Of a stretch of DNA of 25,323 nucleotides, positions 69 to 25,323 are shown in pieces. Within the stretch, counting starts at the first letter, position 1. Each line of letters opens with the position of its first letter. The position numbers were made by a program, and so were the translations under genes. Under the pieces are notes generated by a model. It did no database searches. It saw only the letters and a list, made by a program, of their open reading frames with translations, and was not told the DNA's origin. Origin of the DNA: an uncultured Ruminococcus sp. (GTDB lineage: Bacteria > Bacillota > Clostridia > Oscillospirales > Acutalibacteraceae); assembly GCA_902767125.1 (NCBI GenBank), contig CACXGJ010000138.1, positions 1 through 25,323 of the forward strand. The letters are read 5' to 3'.

Positions 69-2621
69 TCATTCTTTTATCTGTTCCATCTGATATATCT
101 CGAAAATATCGCCCTCTTTTATATCGGAGAAACGTTCAAGAGTTATACCACATTCAAAGCCCTGTGCTACCTCCTTGACGGAATCCTTGAACCTCTGGAG
201 AGAGGCTATTGTATCATCTGCAATTATTATACCGTCACGGACAACTCTGACGCTTGCTCCACGGACAACCTTTCCCGAAAGCACATAAGAGCCTGATACA
301 AGACCGACATTTGTTATCTTATAGGTCTGACGTACTTCGACCTTACCGAGAACGGTCTCTTTGAATTTAGGTGCAAGCATACCTTTCATGGCAGCCTGTA
401 TTTCCTCGATACAATCATATATGACTCTGTACAGACGCATATCCACACCGTCATTTTTGGCATTTTCTTCAGCAACGGGATCGGGACGTACATTGAAGCC
501 GACTATAATTGCATTTGATGCTGATGCGAGCATCACATCGGATTCTCTTATTGCACCTACACCGCTGTGTATCACATTGACACGTATCTCATCATTTGTC
601 AGCTTTTCGAGTGATTGCCTTACCGCCTCGACAGAACCCTGAACATCAGCTTTTACGATTATCTTCAGTTCTTTCATATCTTCAAGCTTCATCTGATCAA
701 AGAGATTATCGAGAGTGATTTTTGTACGGGCATTGAATTTTTCTTCCTTCTGTGCAGTCTTCCTCTGATCAACAAGCTCTCTTGCAAGACGCTCATCGGA
801 TACAGAGTTGAATACATCACCGCCTGTCGGGACATTATCAAGACCTGTTATCTCAACAGGTACCGAAGGACCTGCATTCTTTACTTTATTGCCCTTATCA
901 TCGCTCATTGCACGGACACGTCCGACCGTTGTACCTGCAACGATTATATCACCTACATTGAGAGTACCGTTCTGAACGAGTACCGTTGCAACAGGACCAC
1001 GACCTTTGTCAAGTCTTGCTTCGATGACAGTACCCTTTGCAGCTCTTTCGGGATTCGCCTTCAGCTCCTTCATGTCTGCAATAAGGAGTACCATTTCAAG
1101 AAGCTCATTGAGATTTTCCTTTGTTTTTGCAGAAACGCCTATAACGGGAGTATCTCCGCCGAAGTCCTCGGGAACTATCTCATATTCCATAAGCTGTGTT
1201 TTAACTTTGTTTATGTCTGCCGCAGGCTTGTCTATTTTATTTGCTGCAACGATTATTGAAACTCCCGCAGCCTTTGCATGGTTTATAGCCTCAATGGTTT
1301 GAGGCATGATGCCGTCGTCGGCAGCCACGACAAGTATAGCAATATCCGTTACTTGAGCTCCTCTTGCACGCATTGTTGTAAATGCCTCATGTCCGGGAGT
1401 GTCGAGGAAAGTTATATCCCTGCCGTCAATATTTACACGATAAGCACCAATATGTTGAGTTATGCCGCCTGCCTCGGTTGACGTTACATTTGCATGGCGT
1501 ATGGCATCAAGGAGAGAGGTCTTGCCGTGGTCAACGTGTCCCATCACGACAACGACGGGAGCTCTCGGAACAAGATTTTCGTCATCATCATCACTGTCAT
1601 CAATGATTCTTTCTTCAATGGTCTCAATGGTTTCCTTTTCTATTCTTGCATGGAATTCAAGTGCCACAAGAGAGGCTGTATCGAAGTCGATGTTATCATT
1701 GACGCTTGCCATTACACCAAGATTCATGAGCTTCATGATGACTTCGGCAGCTCTCGCCTTAAGACGCAGTGCAAGCTCACCGACAGTTATCTCATCAGGA
1801 ATCTGAACAGTTATAGGCTTTGTTTTTCTTTCTCTTTCGATACGGTTGATTCTTTCCATTTCGGTTTCCTTGCGGGAATTTTTGGGTTTTCCACGCTGTT
1901 GGGAACGCTGATTTATCTTTTCCTTGCCCGGACCTGTATTGACATTGTGCATTTTTTCGCTTGCAAGACGGTCATATTTTTCATTGTATCTTTCGATATC
2001 GACATTTGACTGACGGGTATTTATCACCCTGCTTCTTTTTTCAAATGAGCCTTCCTGCTTTGGAGCTTCGGGTTCGGTATTTTGTTTTTCGGGTTTTTGG
2101 TTATTGTTGTTCTGAACAGGTTTTTTATCGGGATTTTTGAACTTGCTTCCATTGATGCCTTTGGTTTTTTTATCGGGCTTGGATTCAAATCTTTTTTCCT
2201 TTTTGGCATCCGACCTTTCAGTCTTTTCGGACTTTTCTGTTTTTTCTTTTTTATCCCTGTCCTTATCGGGCTTATCCTTTTTGTCTTTTTTATATTTATC
2301 AAACTTATCGTTTTTGTCTTTGTCGGATTTTCTGTCTTTTTTCTCTGACTTTTCCGTTTTTTCGATTTTATCCTTCTTGTCCGGGGCAGAGGGCTTTTCA
2401 TCTTCAACGGGATCGTTTTTTGAAGCAAAATATTTTTGAAAATCGGGTACACTGTTATCAAGAGTTACTTTTTCAAATACAAAATTAAGCTCATCCTCCG
2501 TAAGAACGGTATTAGGCTTTCTTATGGTATTGAAATTTTGTTTTATCATATCTGCAATATCCTTGACCTGCATATTAAGGTCCTTTGCCAGATCACCAAG
2601 TTTATATTTTATCATACACAA
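69..2621 (-). CDS. infB: Translation initiation factor IF-2
   Basis: 850 aa; [13 protein letters not shown] and NKID GTPase motifs; IF-2 C-terminal domains ([15 protein letters not shown]); last gene of the rimP-nusA cluster; AGGAGG RBS before GTG at 2621 (alternative ATG at 2615). Confidence 0.99.
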
Positions 2622-2636
2622 ATTCCTCCTGTTACA

Positions 2637-2945
2637 TCAAGCTAAAAGCTGTTGCAGCTTTTTTGCAAATCCTTCATCATTCACGGAAACAACTCCCACA
2701 AGCTTTCCGACGGCTGCCCCGAGATCAGCCATAGGTATATTTGAGGCAATGATATTTATATTATTGCTTTCTGCTTTTTTATAAAATGCAGAGAGCGTTC
2801 TCTCGGAAATATCAACAGCGGTTATTATCAGCCTTGATTTTTTCTTTATGACAGATTCCTCCGCCGAGTCGAATCCGAGAGAGAGCTTGCCGGCTCTTCT
2901 CGCAAGACCTAAAAGATTCAAAGCCGATCTGATATTATTGTCCAT
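2637..2945 (-). CDS. ylxQ: L7Ae/L30e-family RNA-binding protein (YlxQ-like), 102 aa
   Basis: LLGLARRAGKLSLG motif; position between ylxR and infB; start moved to the MDNN ATG at 2945, overlapping the ylxR stop. Confidence 0.93.
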   Translation of the reverse strand: MDNNIRSALNLLGLARRAGKLSLGFDSAEESVIKKKSRLIITAVDISERTLSAFYKKAESNNINIIASNIPMADLGAAVGKLVGVVSVNDEGFAKKLQQLLA

Positions 2946-3249
2946 TTGATTCAGCCGCCTCCAGTTCTTTTTCAAGCTGTAGGTAGACCTCATCGGGTAT
3001 CCTGCATGAAAATGCTTTTTCAAGTCTCCTTGCCTTTCTTGCAGCCTTAAGACATTCAGAGTTAGAGCATATATAAGCACCTCTGCCCGATTTTTTGCCT
3101 GTCAGGTCAACAATGATCTCGCTTTTCAGTATGATATTTCCGTTTTCATCCGTTTTATCGGGTGTTTTTACTATCCTTACAAGCTGCTTTTTTTCCTTCA
3201 TCTCATTGCAGCCCGTACATTTTCTCAAAGGGATCTTCTTTTGGTGCAT
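2935..3249 (-). CDS. ylxR: YlxR/RnpM (DUF448) RNA-binding protein
   Basis: PLRKCTGC...GKKSGRGAYIC...ECL signature; directly after nusA. Confidence 0.95.
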   Translation of the reverse strand: MHQKKIPLRKCTGCNEMKEKKQLVRIVKTPDKTDENGNIILKSEIIVDLTGKKSGRGAYICSNSECLKAARKARRLEKAFSCRIPDEVYLQLEKELEAAESNGQ

Positions 3250-3265
3250 ATATTATCTCCTTCAA

Positions 3266-4459
3266 TTATGCTTCAGAGTCAACCGTCGTGTCCTTGCCTT
3301 CCGTATCAGTATCGTCAGCAGCCTCTGTAATATCAGCTTTTGTTTCTGTATCTTCATATTCATCATCTTCTTCGTCATCATAAGGATTGCTCTCGGGACG
3401 GATATCTATTTTCCATCCGGTGAGCTTTGCGGCAAGACGAACATTTTGCCCCTTGTTTCCTATTGCAAGTGAAAGCTGGCTGTCAGGCACTACTGCACGG
3501 CAGGTTCTTTCGGTTCTCGGATCTATGTCTACCCACTTTACCTCGGCGGGAGAAAGTGATGCGGAAACGAATTTTATAGGATCCTCATCATATTCGATGA
3601 TATCTATTTTTTCACCGTTGAGAGCAGCAACTATTGTGCTGACTCTCTGACCTCTCGGACCTATGCAGGCTCCGACAGCATCTACATTTTCATCATGGCT
3701 GAATACAGCTATTTTAGTTCTTGAGCCTGCTTCTCTCGATATTGATTTTATCTCGACAACACCGTCAAATATCTCGGGAACCTCGGATTCAAAGAGTTTT
3801 TTGACAAAATCGGGATGAGTCCTTGAGACTATGGCACGGGATTCCTTATTATCGGGCTTCATACCGAGAACATATACTTTTATGACATCATTTTCATGCA
3901 ATACCTCTCCGACAACCTGTTCATTTTTTGCAAGGACTGCAACGGATTTTCCGAGACGTACATTTGCATTGCCCGTATTCTTGTCGATCTGCTCAACGGT
4001 AACTGTAACTATCTCTGCCCTTTTGCTTTCAAAGTCGGCAAGAGCCTGTCCCTTTTCGCTGTCACGGATGCCCTGACGTATTGTATTCTTGGCTTTTTGT
4101 GCAGCGATTCTTCCAAAGTCCTTTGTATCAAGTCTTATACCGACCTTATCGCCTATCACGGCATTGGCATTGATCTTTCTTGCTTCATCAAGCTGTATCT
4201 CATACTTGGGATTCAACACCTCATCAACGACCTCTTTATTGAGGAATACCTCGAAGATGCTTGTATCGGGATCCATGTTTATAAGTATGTCATCATCACT
4301 GTTGCCGTACATTTTCTTGCAGGCAAGCTTTATAGCCTTTTGTATCTGGACTATCATATAGTCAACGGCTATGCCCTTTTCCTTTTCGATAGCCTTCAGA
4401 ACCTCATAGAGTTCTGGATTTTTATTTATCTCTGTTTTATTTTCATTTTTAGCTTTCAT
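3266..4459 (-). CDS. nusA: Transcription termination/antitermination factor NusA
   Basis: FGRIAAQKAK, S1 and KH motifs (REAGSRTKIAV, GACIGPRGQRV, LAIGNKGQNVRLAAKLTGWKIDI); acidic tail; start placed at ATG 4459 behind GGAGG (4471-4475). Confidence 0.98.
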   Translation of the reverse strand: MKAKNENKTEINKNPELYEVLKAIEKEKGIAVDYMIVQIQKAIKLACKKMYGNSDDDILINMDPDTSIFEVFLNKEVVDEVLNPKYEIQLDEARKINANAVIGDKVGIRLDTKDFGRIAAQKAKNTIRQGIRDSEKGQALADFESKRAEIVTVTVEQIDKNTGNANVRLGKSVAVLAKNEQVVGEVLHENDVIKVYVLGMKPDNKESRAIVSRTHPDFVKKLFESEVPEIFDGVVEIKSISREAGSRTKIAVFSHDENVDAVGACIGPRGQRVSTIVAALNGEKIDIIEYDEDPIKFVSASLSPAEVKWVDIDPRTERTCRAVVPDSQLSLAIGNKGQNVRLAAKLTGWKIDIRPESNPYDDEEDDEYEDTETKADITEAADDTDTEGKDTTVDSEA

Positions 4460-20054: not shown

Positions 20055-22121
20055 ATGCCTTCACTTTTTAAAATACCCGTAAATCAGCTTTGGGGCATAG
20101 GAAAAACAAAAGAAAACGCTTTTAACAGACTTGGTATATATACTGTCGGAGACCTGTTAGAATTTTATCCGAAAAACTATGAGGACTGGAGCAATCCGCT
20201 TTGTATAAACGATGCCTGTATATTCAGCAGAAGCTATCATAACACCCCCTGCTGTATCAAAGCTGATGTAAGACGTGTCTATGAGCCTCATATTGTAAGA
20301 AACAATATGACTATATACAAGGTCGAGGTAAAGGACGAATATAATGATCGTATGACAGTGACCTTCTTCAATCAGTATTATACCTATCAAAAGCTGGTGA
20401 ATGGCGGAGAATACTTATTCTACGGTGTCGTAAAGGACAGTGAATACGGCTATCAGATGGCATCACCGTCAGTCCTTGATGTGTCAAATATGTGTATACA
20501 TCCCGTGTATCCCCAGACTGCCAACCTTACCACAAAACAGATAGAATTTGCTGTAAAACAGTCAATAAATATGCTTCCCGAAAAAGTCAATGATCCTGTT
20601 CCGCCCGATATACTTGAAAAATACAATCTGTGTGAGCTTGGATATGCCATCAAAAATATACATTTCCCCGAAGATCATATTGCCTTGAGCAATGCAAGAC
20701 AAAGACTGATATTCGAGGAGCTTCTGATACTTCAATTGGGTATGGCACGCCTCAAGGGCGGAAGACATGAGGAAACTGCACATAAAATAAAAAAAGACTT
20801 CACAAAGGAATTTTTCAAGATACTTCCATTTAAGCCGACTAATGCTCAAAAGCGGGCTATCGGTGAATGTATATCCGATATGAAAGAAAATGATTATCCT
20901 ATGAACAGGCTTATCCAGGGAGATGTCGGTTCAGGAAAAACCGCTGTTGCGGCAGCAGTGTGCTACAGTGCAGTAAAAAATTCCTTCCAGTGTGCATTCA
21001 TGGCTCCCACAGAGATTCTTGCAGAACAGCATTACAGGACTTTCACCGAATTATTCAAGGATACCGACATAACCGTAGGACTCCTTACAGGCTCCATGAG
21101 AGCCTCTCAAAAGAAAAAAATACAGGAACAGATAAAAAACGGTCAGATAGATATAACTATCGGAACTCATGCCCTTATCTCCGATAAAGTAGAGTTCGAT
21201 TCTCTCGGACTCGTCATAACAGATGAACAGCACCGTTTCGGAGTCGCTCAAAGAGCTGAACTTATTTCAAGGGGCAATAATCCTCATATACTCGTAATGT
21301 CTGCAACCCCCATCCCCCGAACACTTGCCCTGATGATATTCGGAGACCTTGATTTGTCGGTGCTGGATGAGATGCCTCCCGGAAGACAAAAAATAGATAC
21401 GCATTTAATAAGCAGTCGGGCGAAGCCAAAGGCTTATGACTTTATAAAAAGAGAAATAGATAACGGCAGACAATGCTATATAGTATGCCCCGTTGTCGCT
21501 CAAAATGACGAAAACAATCTCATATCCGCCGAAGAATACAGCGATATCCTTGACAGGACAGTCCTGAAAAATTACAGAAGGGCAGTCATTCACGGCAAAA
21601 TGAAGGCTTCCGAAAAGGACAGGATAATGCGGGATTTTTCAGCGGGAAATATTGATATTATCATTGCAACGACTGTTATCGAGGTCGGGATAGATGTCCC
21701 GAACAGTACCATAATTATGATAGAAAATGCAGAAAGATTCGGTCTTTCACAGCTCCATCAGCTTCGAGGACGTGTCGGCAGAGGAAAATATAAATCCTGC
21801 TGTATACTTGTTTCCGATACTCAAAAGAGCAGTACACTTGAAAGATTGAATGTCATGAGAAAAACAAATGACGGATTTGTGATAGCCGATGAAGACCTTA
21901 AGCTCCGAGGTCCGGGGGACTTCTTCGGTGCAAGACAGCATGGACTGCCTGAACTCAAGATAGCTAACCTGTCAAATGCTTCATCTGTCGAAAACGCCAA
22001 AATGGCTGCTCATGTGATACTTGAAAGTGATCCCGACCTGTCATTGAAGGAACACAGGGGACTTTATGTTGAGACTCAAAGGCTCTTTGCGGCAGTGGGT
22101 TCAACAGAAAGACTCCAGTAA
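20055..22121 (+). CDS. recG: ATP-dependent DNA helicase RecG, 688 aa
   Basis: QGDVGSGKT, MAPTEILAEQH, DEQHRFG, MSATPIPRT, QLHQLRGRVGRG and DLKLRGPG; ATG 20055 behind AGGAGG. Confidence 0.98.
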   Translation: MPSLFKIPVNQLWGIGKTKENAFNRLGIYTVGDLLEFYPKNYEDWSNPLCINDACIFSRSYHNTPCCIKADVRRVYEPHIVRNNMTIYKVEVKDEYNDRMTVTFFNQYYTYQKLVNGGEYLFYGVVKDSEYGYQMASPSVLDVSNMCIHPVYPQTANLTTKQIEFAVKQSINMLPEKVNDPVPPDILEKYNLCELGYAIKNIHFPEDHIALSNARQRLIFEELLILQLGMARLKGGRHEETAHKIKKDFTKEFFKILPFKPTNAQKRAIGECISDMKENDYPMNRLIQGDVGSGKTAVAAAVCYSAVKNSFQCAFMAPTEILAEQHYRTFTELFKDTDITVGLLTGSMRASQKKKIQEQIKNGQIDITIGTHALISDKVEFDSLGLVITDEQHRFGVAQRAELISRGNNPHILVMSATPIPRTLALMIFGDLDLSVLDEMPPGRQKIDTHLISSRAKPKAYDFIKREIDNGRQCYIVCPVVAQNDENNLISAEEYSDILDRTVLKNYRRAVIHGKMKASEKDRIMRDFSAGNIDIIIATTVIEVGIDVPNSTIIMIENAERFGLSQLHQLRGRVGRGKYKSCCILVSDTQKSSTLERLNVMRKTNDGFVIADEDLKLRGPGDFFGARQHGLPELKIANLSNASSVENAKMAAHVILESDPDLSLKEHRGLYVETQRLFAAVGSTERLQ

Positions 22122-22155
22122 TAAAAAAATATATTTTCAGAAAGGAAGCAATGAA

Positions 22156-22869
22156 ATGGAAAACTATAATGACTTTTTACAGAGAATAAGCTATCAGCAG
22201 ACCGAACTCCAGATCAGAGACGGGGATTTTACGCCTAATGAGCGAGTTTTTCAGAAAGTAGCTCCCGAAAATTCATTCAAGGCATTCTTTGGTGATACAG
22301 TTGTCTTTGACCTCCCCAAAAAAGTCAAAAAGGCAATTTATCCGATACTTGACAAATTGTATGAAAAATGTCCCGAATGTTTTTGTCAAAGGCTTAATGA
22401 AAATACTATGCACATGACACTGCATGACCTTAATGCTTCCGATAATCTCAATGAGATTGCGTGTGATGTATTCAGCAATGAGATAAAGCTCCTTGAAGTC
22501 CTCGCAAAGAATCCCGTTGAGCATCATAAGATAAAAATGAAGACTAATTTCATTGTCAACATGGTCGATACAAGTCTTGTGCTTACCCTTGTACCCATTG
22601 ATGAGGATGAATGGAACAAGCTCCAAGCCCTCTATGACATGATAAACGAAGTCAGGGTATGCGGATATCCGTTTCTCACTCCGCATATAACCCTCGCTTA
22701 CTTCAATTACAACGGCTTTGACAAGTCATCATCCGACAAGCTCAAAAAAGTGGTTACTTCACTTAATGAAAAACTCGACCTTGAGATACATCTCGATACA
22801 AAGAAACTTTATTATCAGAAATTTGTCAGCATGAACGAATATATAAATATTTTCCGTCTTGCAGAATAA
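22156..22869 (+). CDS. 2H-phosphoesterase-superfamily protein (DUF1868-like), 237 aa
   Basis: Two HxT motifs (MHMTLHDL, PHITLAYF) about 90 aa apart and an N-terminal FFGDTVVFDL motif; start moved to MENYN behind AAAGGA. Confidence 0.75.
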   Translation: MENYNDFLQRISYQQTELQIRDGDFTPNERVFQKVAPENSFKAFFGDTVVFDLPKKVKKAIYPILDKLYEKCPECFCQRLNENTMHMTLHDLNASDNLNEIACDVFSNEIKLLEVLAKNPVEHHKIKMKTNFIVNMVDTSLVLTLVPIDEDEWNKLQALYDMINEVRVCGYPFLTPHITLAYFNYNGFDKSSSDKLKKVVTSLNEKLDLEIHLDTKKLYYQKFVSMNEYINIFRLAE

Positions 22870-22878
22870 AAAAATCTA

Positions 22879-22918
22879 TCCCTTGCGGAAAAAAACATCT
22901 TCCGCAAGGGAGTTTTTT
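22879..22918 (+). terminator. Intrinsic terminator of recG-2H
   Basis: Perfect 12-bp stem TCCCTTGCGGAA/TTCCGCAAGGGA followed by GTTTTTT. Confidence 0.9.
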
Positions 22919-22930
22919 ATTCACTCTGTA

Positions 22931-22959
22931 TTGACAAACATATCACACTGTTATATAAT
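22931..22959 (+). promoter_or_regulatory. Perfect-consensus sigmaA promoter upstream of the mini-array
   Basis: TTGACA-N17-TATAAT; no same-strand ORF downstream. Confidence 0.88.
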
Positions 22960-22980
22960 AAAATCACAGCGTGAAACGTT

Positions 22981-23134
22981 GTTCTTATAATTCCCCATAG
23001 GGGACGAAAGAAGCCCACCGCCATAAATTACCCGTGCATTTCCGTTTTCACAACTCCCTATAGGGGACGATACGCCAGACGGGATATAGTTTATCAAAGC
23101 GTACTCCCTTACAATTCCCCATAGGGGACAAAAA
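22981..23134 (+). CRISPR. Orphan, degenerate CRISPR-like mini-array: 3 repeats of about 30 bp and 2 spacers (33 and 31 bp)
   Basis: R1 22981 GTTCTTATAATTCCCCATAGGGGACGAAAG; R2 23044 GTTTTCACAACTCCCTATAGGGGACGATAC; R3 23105 TCCCTTACAATTCCCCATAGGGGACAAAAA; TCCCC-ATA-GGGGA hairpin; period 63/61 bp; unique spacers; no cas genes in the window. Confidence 0.72.
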
Positions 23135-23138
23135 ATAG

Positions 23139-23172
23139 ACTCCAAAACAAATAATGTTTTGGAGTTATTTTT
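23139..23172 (+). terminator. Terminator closing the mini-array transcript
   Basis: Perfect 11-bp stem ACTCCAAAACA/TGTTTTGGAGT plus TATTTTT, 4 bp after repeat 3. Confidence 0.8.
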
Positions 23173-23184
23173 ATTGCAACAAAG

Positions 23185-23219
23185 AAAAAACCGAACTGCT
23201 TTTCTCAAAAACAGTTCGG
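23185..23219 (-). terminator. Terminator of the EF-G paralogue
   Basis: CCGAACTG/CAGTTCGG stem with a 6-U run on the minus strand, about 20 nt after the stop. Confidence 0.8.
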
Positions 23220-23238
23220 CTCAATTATTGATCGTTAA

Positions 23239-25296
23239 TTATTCTTTTGTGTCGGCAATAACCTTTTGTGCGACCATTGCAGGTGCTTCTTCATAGCGGA
23301 CAAATTCAAAGCTGAAATATCCTCTGCCTTGAGTTGCCTGACGAACAAATGTCGAAAAGTCGCTCATCTCTGCCTGCGGAACTTCCGCTTCAATGGTCTG
23401 CATACGGTCTTCTGACGGGTTCATGCCAAGCACACGTCCACGACGTTTTGTAACTTCGCCCATGACATCACCCATGTTTGCATCAGGCACTGTTGCCTTG
23501 AGCAAACCTACAGGCTCAAGCAGTACAGGACTTGCTTTCGGCATACCGTCTTTATATGCAAGTGCGGCGGCTGTTTTGAATGACATTTCGGAGGAGTCTA
23601 CGGGGTGATATGAACCGTCATAGAGAGTTGCTTTGAGTCCGACAACGGGGAAGCCTGCAAGAGGTCCCTTTGAAATGCTGTCACGGAGTCCCTTTTCGAC
23701 TGCAGGGAAGAAGCCCTTCGGAACCGCACCGCCGACTACTCTTTCTTCAAATATCATATCATCACTTTCACATGGGGAGAACTCTATCCATACATCACCG
23801 AACTGTCCGTGACCGCCTGTCTGTTTCTTGTAACGTCCCTGAACCTTGACGGTTTTTCTGATGGTCTCACGGTATGCTACCTTCGGCTTTGACAGTACAA
23901 CGTCTACACTGTACTTTGATTTAAGTTTGGAAACAACTACATCAAGGTGTTGTTCGCCCATTCCGCTGACAAGCATCTGATGTGTTTCGTGATTTGTTTC
24001 AAATTTGATGGTGGGGTCTTCTTCGCAAAGTTTAGCTATACCGAGTGCAACCTTTTCTTCATCGCCCTTTGTCTTCGGAGCAATAGCCATTGTAAGTGAC
24101 GGTGCAGGATATTCTATACCGTCAAGGACAACTTTTCTTGCAGGAGCTGAAAGGGTATCGCCTGTATTTGTTGCAGAGAGCTTTGCAACTGCACCAATAT
24201 CACCTGCACCTATATAGGGAGCATCCTCAAGCTTCTTTCCTTTGATGGTCATGACCTTTGCTATTCTTTCGGTGTTGCCCGTTCTCATGTTCACAAGAGG
24301 AGTATCGGCTGATACCTTACCCGAAATTACTTTGAAGTATGACAGCTTACCTACAAACGGATCGGCTATTGTTTTGAATACGATAGCGGCAGGCATAGCA
24401 TCATCCTTTACATTCAGCTCAACAGGGTTGCCCTCTGTATCAACTGCAAGCTCGCCTGATTTTTCCTCGGCACTCGGTGCAAGCCATATAAGACCGTTCA
24501 AAAGCTGTTCAACGCCGTAAGTCAAAAGAGCATCACCGCAGAATACAGGGCTTATTGTACCATTCTTTACACCGTGACTTATACCTACGATTATTTCTTC
24601 GGGAGTAAATTCCTCGCCCGAGAAATATTTCTCGAACATTTCATCGCTTGTTTCGGCAACTGCTTCATTTATGGCAGTTCTCAAGCCCTCAAGGCGATCA
24701 CCCATATCGGGGATCGGAACAACGGTTACTTTGCCGTTTATATATTTATAAGCCTTGTATTCAAGAAGATTTACATAACAATCTGCCTGACCGTCAACTA
24801 TATACGGAACTACAACAGGGCATACAGATGGACCGAAGGATGATTTAAGGCTTTCAAAAACACGGTAGAATCTTGCACTTTCATCGCAAAGACCGTTTAC
24901 GAAGAATACCTTTGTAAGACCTCTTTTATCGGCAGCTTTTACAGCCTTTTCGGTACCGACGCTTACACCGCCCTTGCCCGAAACCGTGATGAGCATTGTA
25001 TCGGCAGCTCTTGAAGCTTCACACAGACCGCCTTCAAAGTCAAAAAGCCCGGGAGCATCAATGATATTTATCTTCTTATTTTTCCATTCAAGAGGAGCTA
25101 CACAAGCCTGTACAGAGGTTTTTCTCTTTATTTCTTCGGGATCGAAGTCGCATACGGTGTTGCCTTCGCTGACTTTACCGAGTCTTTCGGAGCCGCCGCA
25201 CAAATAAAGCATAGCTTCCGCAAGAGATGTCTTACCCGAGCCACTGTGACCGGCAAGGGCAATATTGATAATATTTTTTGCGTTATACTGTTTCAA
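23239..25296 (-). CDS. fusA2: Elongation factor G paralogue (EF-G2/FusA2-type), 685 aa
   Basis: EF-G layout (GMGEQHL, KQTGGHGQFG, DGSYHPVDSSEMSF, LLEPV); variant G1 GHSGSGKT; not in an rpsL-rpsG-tuf context as far as visible; TTG start behind AGGAGG. Confidence 0.92.
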   Translation of the reverse strand: MKQYNAKNIINIALAGHSGSGKTSLAEAMLYLCGGSERLGKVSEGNTVCDFDPEEIKRKTSVQACVAPLEWKNKKINIIDAPGLFDFEGGLCEASRAADTMLITVSGKGGVSVGTEKAVKAADKRGLTKVFFVNGLCDESARFYRVFESLKSSFGPSVCPVVVPYIVDGQADCYVNLLEYKAYKYINGKVTVVPIPDMGDRLEGLRTAINEAVAETSDEMFEKYFSGEEFTPEEIIVGISHGVKNGTISPVFCGDALLTYGVEQLLNGLIWLAPSAEEKSGELAVDTEGNPVELNVKDDAMPAAIVFKTIADPFVGKLSYFKVISGKVSADTPLVNMRTGNTERIAKVMTIKGKKLEDAPYIGAGDIGAVAKLSATNTGDTLSAPARKVVLDGIEYPAPSLTMAIAPKTKGDEEKVALGIAKLCEEDPTIKFETNHETHQMLVSGMGEQHLDVVVSKLKSKYSVDVVLSKPKVAYRETIRKTVKVQGRYKKQTGGHGQFGDVWIEFSPCESDDMIFEERVVGGAVPKGFFPAVEKGLRDSISKGPLAGFPVVGLKATLYDGSYHPVDSSEMSFKTAAALAYKDGMPKASPVLLEPVGLLKATVPDANMGDVMGEVTKRRGRVLGMNPSEDRMQTIEAEVPQAEMSDFSTFVRQATQGRGYFSFEFVRYEEAPAMVAQKVIADTKE

Positions 25297-25323
25297 AAGT
25301 TTTGCCTCCTTGTAATTAGAATA

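Follow-up and report, generated by a model that had tools for sequence, protein, structure and literature searches.

An EFG II-type second elongation factor G in an uncultured Ruminococcus, with a base pocket that looks rebuilt rather than decayed

We analyzed a paralogue of elongation factor G (EF-G) encoded near one end of contig CACXGJ010000138.1 (assembly GCA_902767125.1) of an uncultured Ruminococcus sp. of the Acutalibacteraceae; the whole stretch of 25,323 nucleotides is referred to here as the window, and the features of the gene are collected in Table 1. The window gene is a functional second EF-G of the EFG II type, and the loss from it of NKxD, the G4 motif by which classical TRAFAC GTPases read guanine through a Lys and an Asp, is real, genus-specific and selected. 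The nucleotide-base pocket looks rebuilt, not decayed, because loss of the G4 Asp is accompanied by a new acid at G5 in unrelated lineages; the most alarming sign of degeneration in the protein would then be a selected rebuild with a change of partner at G5, a solution that appears to have arisen repeatedly. The account that we prefer, to which we give slightly better than even credence, is that of a functional, monocistronic EFG II factor working beside canonical fusA, which would bind nucleoside triphosphate (NTP), hydrolyze it poorly and read the base through a relocated carboxylate.

When aligned with Thermus thermophilus EF-G (513 bits), the window protein departs from the canonical factor at five GTPase motifs: AHIDAGKT becomes GHSGSGKT (residues 16-23), RGITI becomes RKTSV (58-62), DxPGH becomes DAPGL (80-84), NKMD becomes NGLC (134-137) and GSA becomes GDA (254-256). 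Two hallmarks of canonical EF-G are therefore missing, namely DxPGH with its catalytic His and RGITI, and both the Lys and the Asp of NKxD are gone. All five differences had been named in the original prediction, made by a model from the letters alone, and all are seen here; the domain IV loops KQTGGHGQFG and GSYHPVDSS, which it had described as intact, are borne out as such by the alignment. Chance or error does not account for these differences, because the same states are fixed in 121/121 close homologues (76-95% identity), all with VNGLCDES at G4 and CGDA at G5, and in 31/31 loci of the genus, the window's included, with synonymous turnover at every motif codon. At these 31 loci, Cys137 is encoded by TGC in 20 and TGT in 11, and Asp255 by GAT in 17 and GAC in 14.

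Family-wide tallies drew on 150 cluster representatives (at 50%) out of 28,945 homologues. Those with 600 amino acids or more, 146 in number, were aligned, and the removal of two misaligned rows left 144. Within this sample, Gly16 is present in 114/144, position 61 is Ser in 112 and Thr in 31 (Ser or Thr in 143/144), and the position of the catalytic His is occupied by Tyr (69), Phe (35), Asp (10), Leu (6) and, in three representatives, by His itself. Judged by these alignments, the Gly-type P-loop, the switch I Ser and the absent catalytic His are ordinary EFG II hallmarks. The description of the motifs as degenerate consequently stands insofar as all five differ from canonical EF-G, and fails for three of them, which characterize the subfamily. 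The best-conserved positions are the phosphate- and Mg-binding residues and the tip of domain IV: Lys22, Asp80 and Gly83 are each found in 143/144 representatives, Thr23 in 138 (Ser in the other six) and His564 of domain IV in all 144, while Q492, G494, G495, G497, G561 and D567 of domain IV are invariant across 76 sequences. The NKxD Asp position is Asp or Glu in 134/144 and the Lys position is Lys in 91/144.

The two remaining differences, NKxD to NGLC and GSA to GDA, are specific to the genus by the same kind of comparison. In the next two representatives (58-61% identity), G4 reads SKLD and NKLD and G5 is non-acidic, and all 11 paralogues from other families of the order (47-56% identity) have [NST][KR]xD, likewise with a non-acidic G5. 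The EFG II consensus reported by Margus 2011 (PMC3150367) is NKxD at G4 and gSAx at G5, as opposed to NGLC and GDA in the window genus. Since Asp138 of GLCDES aligns to a Glu already present in the KLDEEN of the outgroups, Asp255 at G5 is the only new carboxylate. In this genus, G4 went from NKLD to NGLC as the Ser of G5 gave way to Asp, and the two states have stayed fixed ever since. A redox or metal pair formed by Cys137 and Cys253 was also considered; no support for it was found, and Cys253 is ancestral in the family.

The loss of the G4 acid and the gain of an acid at G5 are coupled well beyond this genus. Among the 144 representatives, Asp occupies the G5 Ser position in 7 of the 10 that have no acid at the NKxD Asp position, versus 5 of the 134 that have one. 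The seven swapped representatives share 35-48% mutual identity, carry source names from WOR-3 through Bacteroidota/Armatimonadota and, save for one pair, have canonical nearest neighbors. Two larger sets of 120 sequences each serve as independent replicates. In the lineage of representative P0259 (67-100% identity; named Aminicenantes, Acidobacteriota and Omnitrophota), the G4 position is acidic in 0/120 and varies (K, T, S, R, G, C, Q or N); 119/120 have the G5 Asp, and the remaining sequence has a gap there. In the P0270 set, with Armatimonadota names, G5 is acidic in 38 of the 39 sequences that lost the G4 acid versus 14 of the 81 that retain it, with both acids in those 14 and neither in one. 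When 276 sequences were pooled, 195 were canonical, 59 swapped, 18 carried both acids and four carried neither (N, N, S and N at the G4 Asp position), which corresponds to an acidic G5 in 59/63 sequences without the G4 acid versus 18/213 with it; the G5 columns of the most divergent rows may be misaligned. From these sequences, the swap appears to recur in about six unrelated lineages, and the pattern reads as a demand that at least one carboxylate line the base pocket, with G4 freed only after G5 has become acidic. The EFG II family and its His loss are known, and in the literature on EF-G paralogues searched, including the text consulted of Margus 2011 (PMC3150367), no statement of a G4/G5 coupling was found.

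Purifying selection on every domain of the paralogue is strong. By the Nei-Gojobori method, the ratio of nonsynonymous to synonymous substitution rates (dN/dS, omega) between the window gene and 28 relatives was 0.012-0.064, with two pairs saturated, and the median over 102 pairs (dS 0.05-1.5) was 0.042; these values are approximate, as dS often exceeds 1. Median omega by domain was 0.041 for G, 0.050 for II, 0.047 for III, 0.027 for IV and 0.046 for V. The paralogue is intact in 54 of the 61 genus genomes sampled, and none of the 54 with a match has an internal stop. A decaying duplicate, a redundant copy losing its motifs under relaxed selection as it turns into a pseudogene, could draw on the report that EFG II evolves fast, with weakened selection in domains I-III (Margus 2011, PMC3150367). 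We give it next to no credence in view of the omega of about 0.04 in all domains and the absence of internal stops, a dN that is 1.2-2.1 times that of canonical fusA in six same-species pairs, motif residues that are invariant despite synonymous turnover, and a gene that has its own Shine-Dalgarno sequence and terminator and is present in contigs from RNA libraries. Relaxed selection or pseudogenization, the outcomes that had been named as speaking against the original prediction, are thus clearly not what omega, dN relative to fusA and synonymous turnover indicate. One genome of the genus (G017) has two full-length copies of the paralogue, on contigs C20 and C104, which are 98% and 94% identical to the window protein and stem either from recent duplication or from the binning of two strains into one genome.

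Comparison with curated protein models places the window protein outside canonical EF-G, as had been proposed: it matches NF009381 (NCBIfam; EFG II / EF-G2-type, also named PRK12740.1-5) at 836.2 bits, over the cut-off of 583, and scores 573.8 with TIGR00484, the canonical EF-G equivalog, under the cut-off of 659.4. Full-length canonical EF-G copies of relatives score 1023-1209 with TIGR00484, and NF009381 is the top model for 13/13 family representatives tested. The cut-offs of NF058620 (Bacteroidota-type EF-G2; 531.1 versus 1000) and NF009377 (EF-G-like protein EF-G2; 531.7 versus 890) were not reached, and a tetracycline ribosomal protection protein was rejected at 272.1 versus a cut-off of 775 for NF012153. 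The source names of close homologues point to Acutalibacteraceae/Clostridia. The EFG II subfamily, called 'EFGII' in Atkinson 2015 (PMC4342817), is defined by six differentially conserved positions (Margus, Remm & Tenson 2011, PMC3150367), and its type-I signature in that study, Gly16, Leu25, Ser61, Thr291(316), Gly333(360) and Lys352(379), is complete in the window protein (6/6: G16, L25, S61, T309, G353 and K372, placed via the T. thermophilus EF-G alignment). The switch I sequence RKTSV also matches RxxSI, the pattern reported for the Clostridia subgroup of EFG II (PMC3150367). In all, the likeness to the subfamily comprises these six residues, an RxxS[IV] switch I, the lack of the catalytic His, a conserved domain IV, a canonical EF-G also present in relatives, and a five-domain architecture, with the Pfam domains GTP_EFTU (7-274), EF-G_D2 (303-383), EFG_III (397-469), EFG_IV (471-589) and EFG_C (591-678). 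Annotators should be cautious, as the label 'elongation factor G' hides a functionally distinct protein in Clostridia and many candidate phyla.

For EFG II factors, a further EF-G of the canonical kind is always expected in the genome. The window's assembly is a 1.67-Mb metagenome-assembled genome (MAG), 76% complete, in which no canonical EF-G above the equivalog cut-off was found. Taken together with several MAGs of the genus that show the paralogue alone, this could mean that the divergent copy replaced canonical EF-G and serves the window's organism as its sole or main EF-G. We regard such a replacement as very unlikely. EF-Tu and S7 were likewise not found in the window's MAG, so that the missing fusA is explained, though not proven, by a str operon that was left unassembled as a whole; four MAGs of the genus without canonical fusA are also without rpsG. 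Where the str operon is assembled, canonical fusA accompanies the paralogue. G040 carries a fully canonical fusA (AHIDAGKT, RGITI, DTPGH, NKMD) after rpsL-rpsG as well as the paralogue; both genes are also found in G002, G003, G007 and G018, and in 11 of 12 genomes from the order's other families. The other translational GTPases of the window's MAG have canonical motifs. The paralogue itself lies outside the str operon, convergent to a 2H-like open reading frame (ORF) and recG, and since the window's downstream genes adjoin it in 0/29 genus loci, there is no conserved operon.

Three studies of animal gut samples yielded metatranscriptomic contigs that carry the gene at 99% identity or more, and one of these, of 1,933 nt, spans 23365-25297. 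In the convergent intergenic gap, depth in these RNA-library contigs drops to below 4 from values in the hundreds. These observations are consistent with the paralogue being transcribed.

Paralogues of the EF-G2 type are widespread, and two of those studied are important for stress survival and gut colonization. The chain in PDB 7UVP/8DMF, labeled 'TetQ' by its depositors, we take to be the Bacteroides thetaiotaomicron EF-G2 of Han et al. 2023. With GSSGSGKT, YGYSV, DCPGS and NQLD, the 7UVP chain shares with the window protein the absent catalytic His, the Gly-type P-loop and the switch I Ser, but its alignment with the window protein scores only 411 bits, its G4 Asp is retained (NQLD) and its G5 is non-acidic. 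Papers that cite the work on this factor describe it as translocating without GTP hydrolysis. The EF-G2 of Mycobacterium smegmatis (PDB 9K0Z/9K10), also of the EFG II type, is more diverged (375.8 bits). It has Tyr98 in place of the His and minimal ribosome-dependent GTPase activity, the H88Y change nearly abolishes the GTPase of M. smegmatis EF-G1, and EF-G2 has no recycling-factor role and is described as stress-specific (bioRxiv 10.64898/2026.05.25.727771). It differs from the window protein in that only the Asn and Met of NKMD are replaced (Thr148, Leu150), with Lys and Asp kept. The window protein thus lacks the catalytic His as do these two GTPase-poor factors. T. thermophilus EF-G-2 (PDB 1WDT/2DY1; 454.8 bits) is the structural prototype of EFG II, and signature position numbers are shared between it and the window protein (PMC3150367); ribosome-dependent and intrinsic GTPase as well as translocation activity have been reported for it (PMC3150367; bioRxiv 10.64898/2026.05.25.727771).

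In the account that we prefer, the protein would still bind an NTP with Mg and switch conformation by means of it, while the ribosome would stimulate hydrolysis little or not at all. Its intact domain IV would enter the ribosomal A site and bring about slow, hydrolysis-independent translocation, or hold the ribosome, when energy is limiting; by analogy with the relatives described above, such a mechanism under energy limitation is likely. The carboxylate that reads the base would have moved out of G4 into the G5 loop next to it in space, in the form of Asp255, and a purine, most likely still guanine, would be read through the rebuilt pocket. That a relocated carboxylate could still read guanine is made plausible by a survey of 298 GTP complexes, 43.3% of which are without NKxD and 20.5% of which read guanine N1/N2 by an Asp or Glu located elsewhere (PMC11594714), and by the geometry of Vibrio cholerae FeoB, whose published models bring the side chains of the G4 Asp and the G5 Ser to within about 2.7 A of each other, a distance that permits a hydrogen bond; the two motifs are said there to 'work in concert' (PMC11406355). 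Retained guanine recognition is favored over ATP or promiscuous binding because both acids do occur together in some sequences and because it is the Ser position that the acid occupies. The proposal that guanine recognition is impaired appears doubtful: the lost G4 Asp is matched by an invariant new G5 Asp, and the coupling recurs in unrelated lineages.

Several points weigh against this account. Besides the missing canonical EF-G in the window's own MAG, phylogenetically paired sign tests of the G4/G5 coupling, which are underpowered, were not significant (median p 0.0625 for the 144 representatives and 0.125 for the 276 pooled rows). Counting clades gave 16/20, or conservatively 6/10 events, versus a background of 18/213 (binomial p about 6e-5), a rough figure in which clades are treated as events. 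The reach of Asp255 to the base is predicted. Cation-pi contacts of the Lys are ranked as the main source of guanine affinity (PMC11594714), and nucleotide binding may be weak because this Lys is also lost (Gly135). Nor does an absent His prove absent hydrolysis, because T. thermophilus EF-G-2 is reported with GTPase activity. The transcription evidence is qualified by the fact that RNA libraries can contain DNA and that Logan contig depth cannot rank genes, nor the paralogue against canonical fusA. Finally, the only case dissected by experiment of G4 loss with a new G5 acid, that of SpoIVA and Era, gave ATP preference (PMC7952092).

This last case underlies an explanation that we take seriously and yet consider unlikely, namely that loss of Lys and Asp together with a G5 acid produced a domain that prefers ATP or binds NTPs promiscuously, and that runs on or senses ATP. 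SpoIVA, of Era-like descent, lost both NKxD residues, left the Asp position unconstrained and gained a G5 acid, and Era given NSxR and SAE preferred ATP (Updegrove et al. 2021, PMC7952092); ATP use by V. cholerae FeoB is controlled by its G5 residues in concert with G4 (PMC11406355). The window clade has likewise lost both Lys and Asp, and the former Asp position drifts freely in the P0259 lineage, as in SpoIVA. SpoIVA, however, belongs to an unrelated family with a function in the spore-coat polymer, and its acid lies two residues after the Ser (SxE), compared with the Ser position itself here. The occurrence of both-acid states (18/213 of the pooled sequences retaining the G4 acid; 14 sequences in the P0270 set), along with the near absence of sequences with neither acid, is more in keeping with a single function redundantly served than with two opposed specificities; a carboxylate next to N1/N2 matches the donors of guanine (PMC11594714), and no ATP-using translational GTPase was found in the literature searched. 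It is equally doubtful, in our estimate, that the recurrent G4-to-G5 move marks a change of nucleotide specificity within a translational GTPase family, with the paralogues of the window genus and of the Aminicenantes- and Armatimonadota-type lineages binding or using ATP or any NTP in place of GTP. If true, the adenylate pool would be linked to translocation or to ribosome holding when energy is limiting.

A further alternative, which was also raised in the original prediction, is a nucleotide-independent factor whose G domain has no useful nucleotide binding and acts only as a scaffold for ribosome docking. The joint absence of the catalytic His and of the NKxD Lys and Asp would suit such a factor, as would the translocation without hydrolysis attributed to B. 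thetaiotaomicron EF-G2. We nevertheless find it quite improbable: the phosphate and Mg ligands K22, D80 and G83 are the best-kept residues of the G domain across the family and are fixed in 31/31 genus loci, the G-domain omega of 0.041 equals that of the other domains, and the rebuilt G4 and G5 residues are themselves invariant, which a dispensable pocket would not need. The locus bears on how far guanine recognition in a P-loop GTPase can be rewired and on whether any translational GTPase has left GTP.

The gene's start is supported by two observations. AAGGAGG stands 8 nt upstream, and ATG occupies the same codon in relatives; the TTG start, at 25294-25296, is therefore taken as genuine from the sequence. 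Among the genus members examined, the window gene and the three relatives closest to it start with TTG and the more distant ones with ATG; a strong AAGGAGG precedes the start codon in all of them. In relatives, a sigma-A-like promoter (TTGTAA-17-TATAAT; 1420-1448 in locus L010) precedes the start by about 50 nt; the equivalent region lies beyond the end of the window's contig. An acidic patch in the G' subdomain is reported to be conserved in EFG II (Margus 2011, PMC3150367), and we infer that the corresponding stretch has a role in the window protein.

Table 1. Coordinates of the EF-G paralogue, its motifs and its flanking signals in the window
Feature	Position	Strand	Remarks
Coding sequence of the EFG II-type EF-G paralogue	23239..25296	minus	685 aa, TTG start, TAA stop
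Shine-Dalgarno AAGGAGG	25305..25311	minus	8 nt before the TTG start
G1 / P-loop GHSGSGKTSL, residues 16-25	25222..25251	minus	EFG II-type Gly16 and Leu25; Lys22 and Thr23 intact
G2 / switch I RKTSV, residues 58-62	25111..25125	minus	Ser61 replaces the Mg-binding Thr; Clostridia EFG II pattern RxxS[IV]
G3 / switch II DAPGLFDF, residues 80-87	25036..25059	minus	Leu84 at the catalytic His position
G4 NGLCD, residues 134-138	24883..24897	minus	Lys to Gly135 and Asp to Cys137, genus-specific
G5 CGDAL, residues 253-257	24526..24540	minus	Asp255 at the Ser position; sole newly gained base-pocket carboxylate
Acidic stretch of the G' subdomain, residues 214-234	24595..24657	minus	sequence AETSDEMFEKYFSGEEFTPEE
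Domain IV loop 1 KQTGGHGQFG, residues 491-500	23797..23826	minus	intact
Domain IV loop 2 GSYHPVDSS, residues 561-569	23590..23616	minus	intact
Intrinsic-terminator-like hairpin	23188..23222	minus	16 pairs, then a T run; 17 nt past the paralogue stop; a second such hairpin at 23139-23165

The surroundings of the paralogue vary within the genus. At locus L010 (genome G044; 99% protein identity), it is flanked by a convergent infB on its 3' side and a divergent citrate-synthase-like gene on its 5' side. In the window (compared over 22870-25323), a repeat cluster, the 2H-like ORF and recG come after the paralogue, and infB lies at the other end of the contig. The difference reflects either a rearrangement at the repeat cluster or a difference in MAG assembly. 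At another locus (L003, contig C117 of genome G000), positions 1039-3606 encode an 855-aa Tet/EF-G-like translational GTPase. Its motifs are canonical (AHVDAGKT, DTPGH, NKMD, GSAL), and it is extended at the C terminus by some 200 aa; Atkinson 2015 (PMC4342817) mentions Clostridiales Tet-like proteins that carry a YacP-like NYN RNase domain as a fusion.

Between the 2H-like ORF and the paralogue lies a perfect sigma-70 consensus promoter on the plus strand (TTGACA-17-TATAAT, 22931-22959). After it, a 26-nt repeat whose core, TCCCYATAGGGGAC, is palindromic occurs three times, at 22984, 23047 and 23108 with a spacing of 61-63 nt, and is followed by a terminator-like hairpin at 23138-23166. The layout of 22931-23175 looks like a mini-array or a REP-like cluster. 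Elsewhere, the repeat occurs in three copies on contig C254 and in one on C244, and a variant in RNA-library contigs replaces 99 nt between 23008 and 23108. At gathering thresholds, no Rfam family was found in the whole window, and the intergenic gap gave only chance-level matches. The ORF itself, at 22066-22869 on the plus strand with a probable start near 22153, had no Pfam match at default thresholds; below threshold, it matched LigT_PEase (E 0.007) and 2_5_RNA_ligase2 (E 0.012), and with its two HxTL motifs (HMTLHD and HITLAY) it probably encodes a divergent 2H phosphoesterase. In its long form, the ORF overlaps the 3' end of recG by 56 nt.

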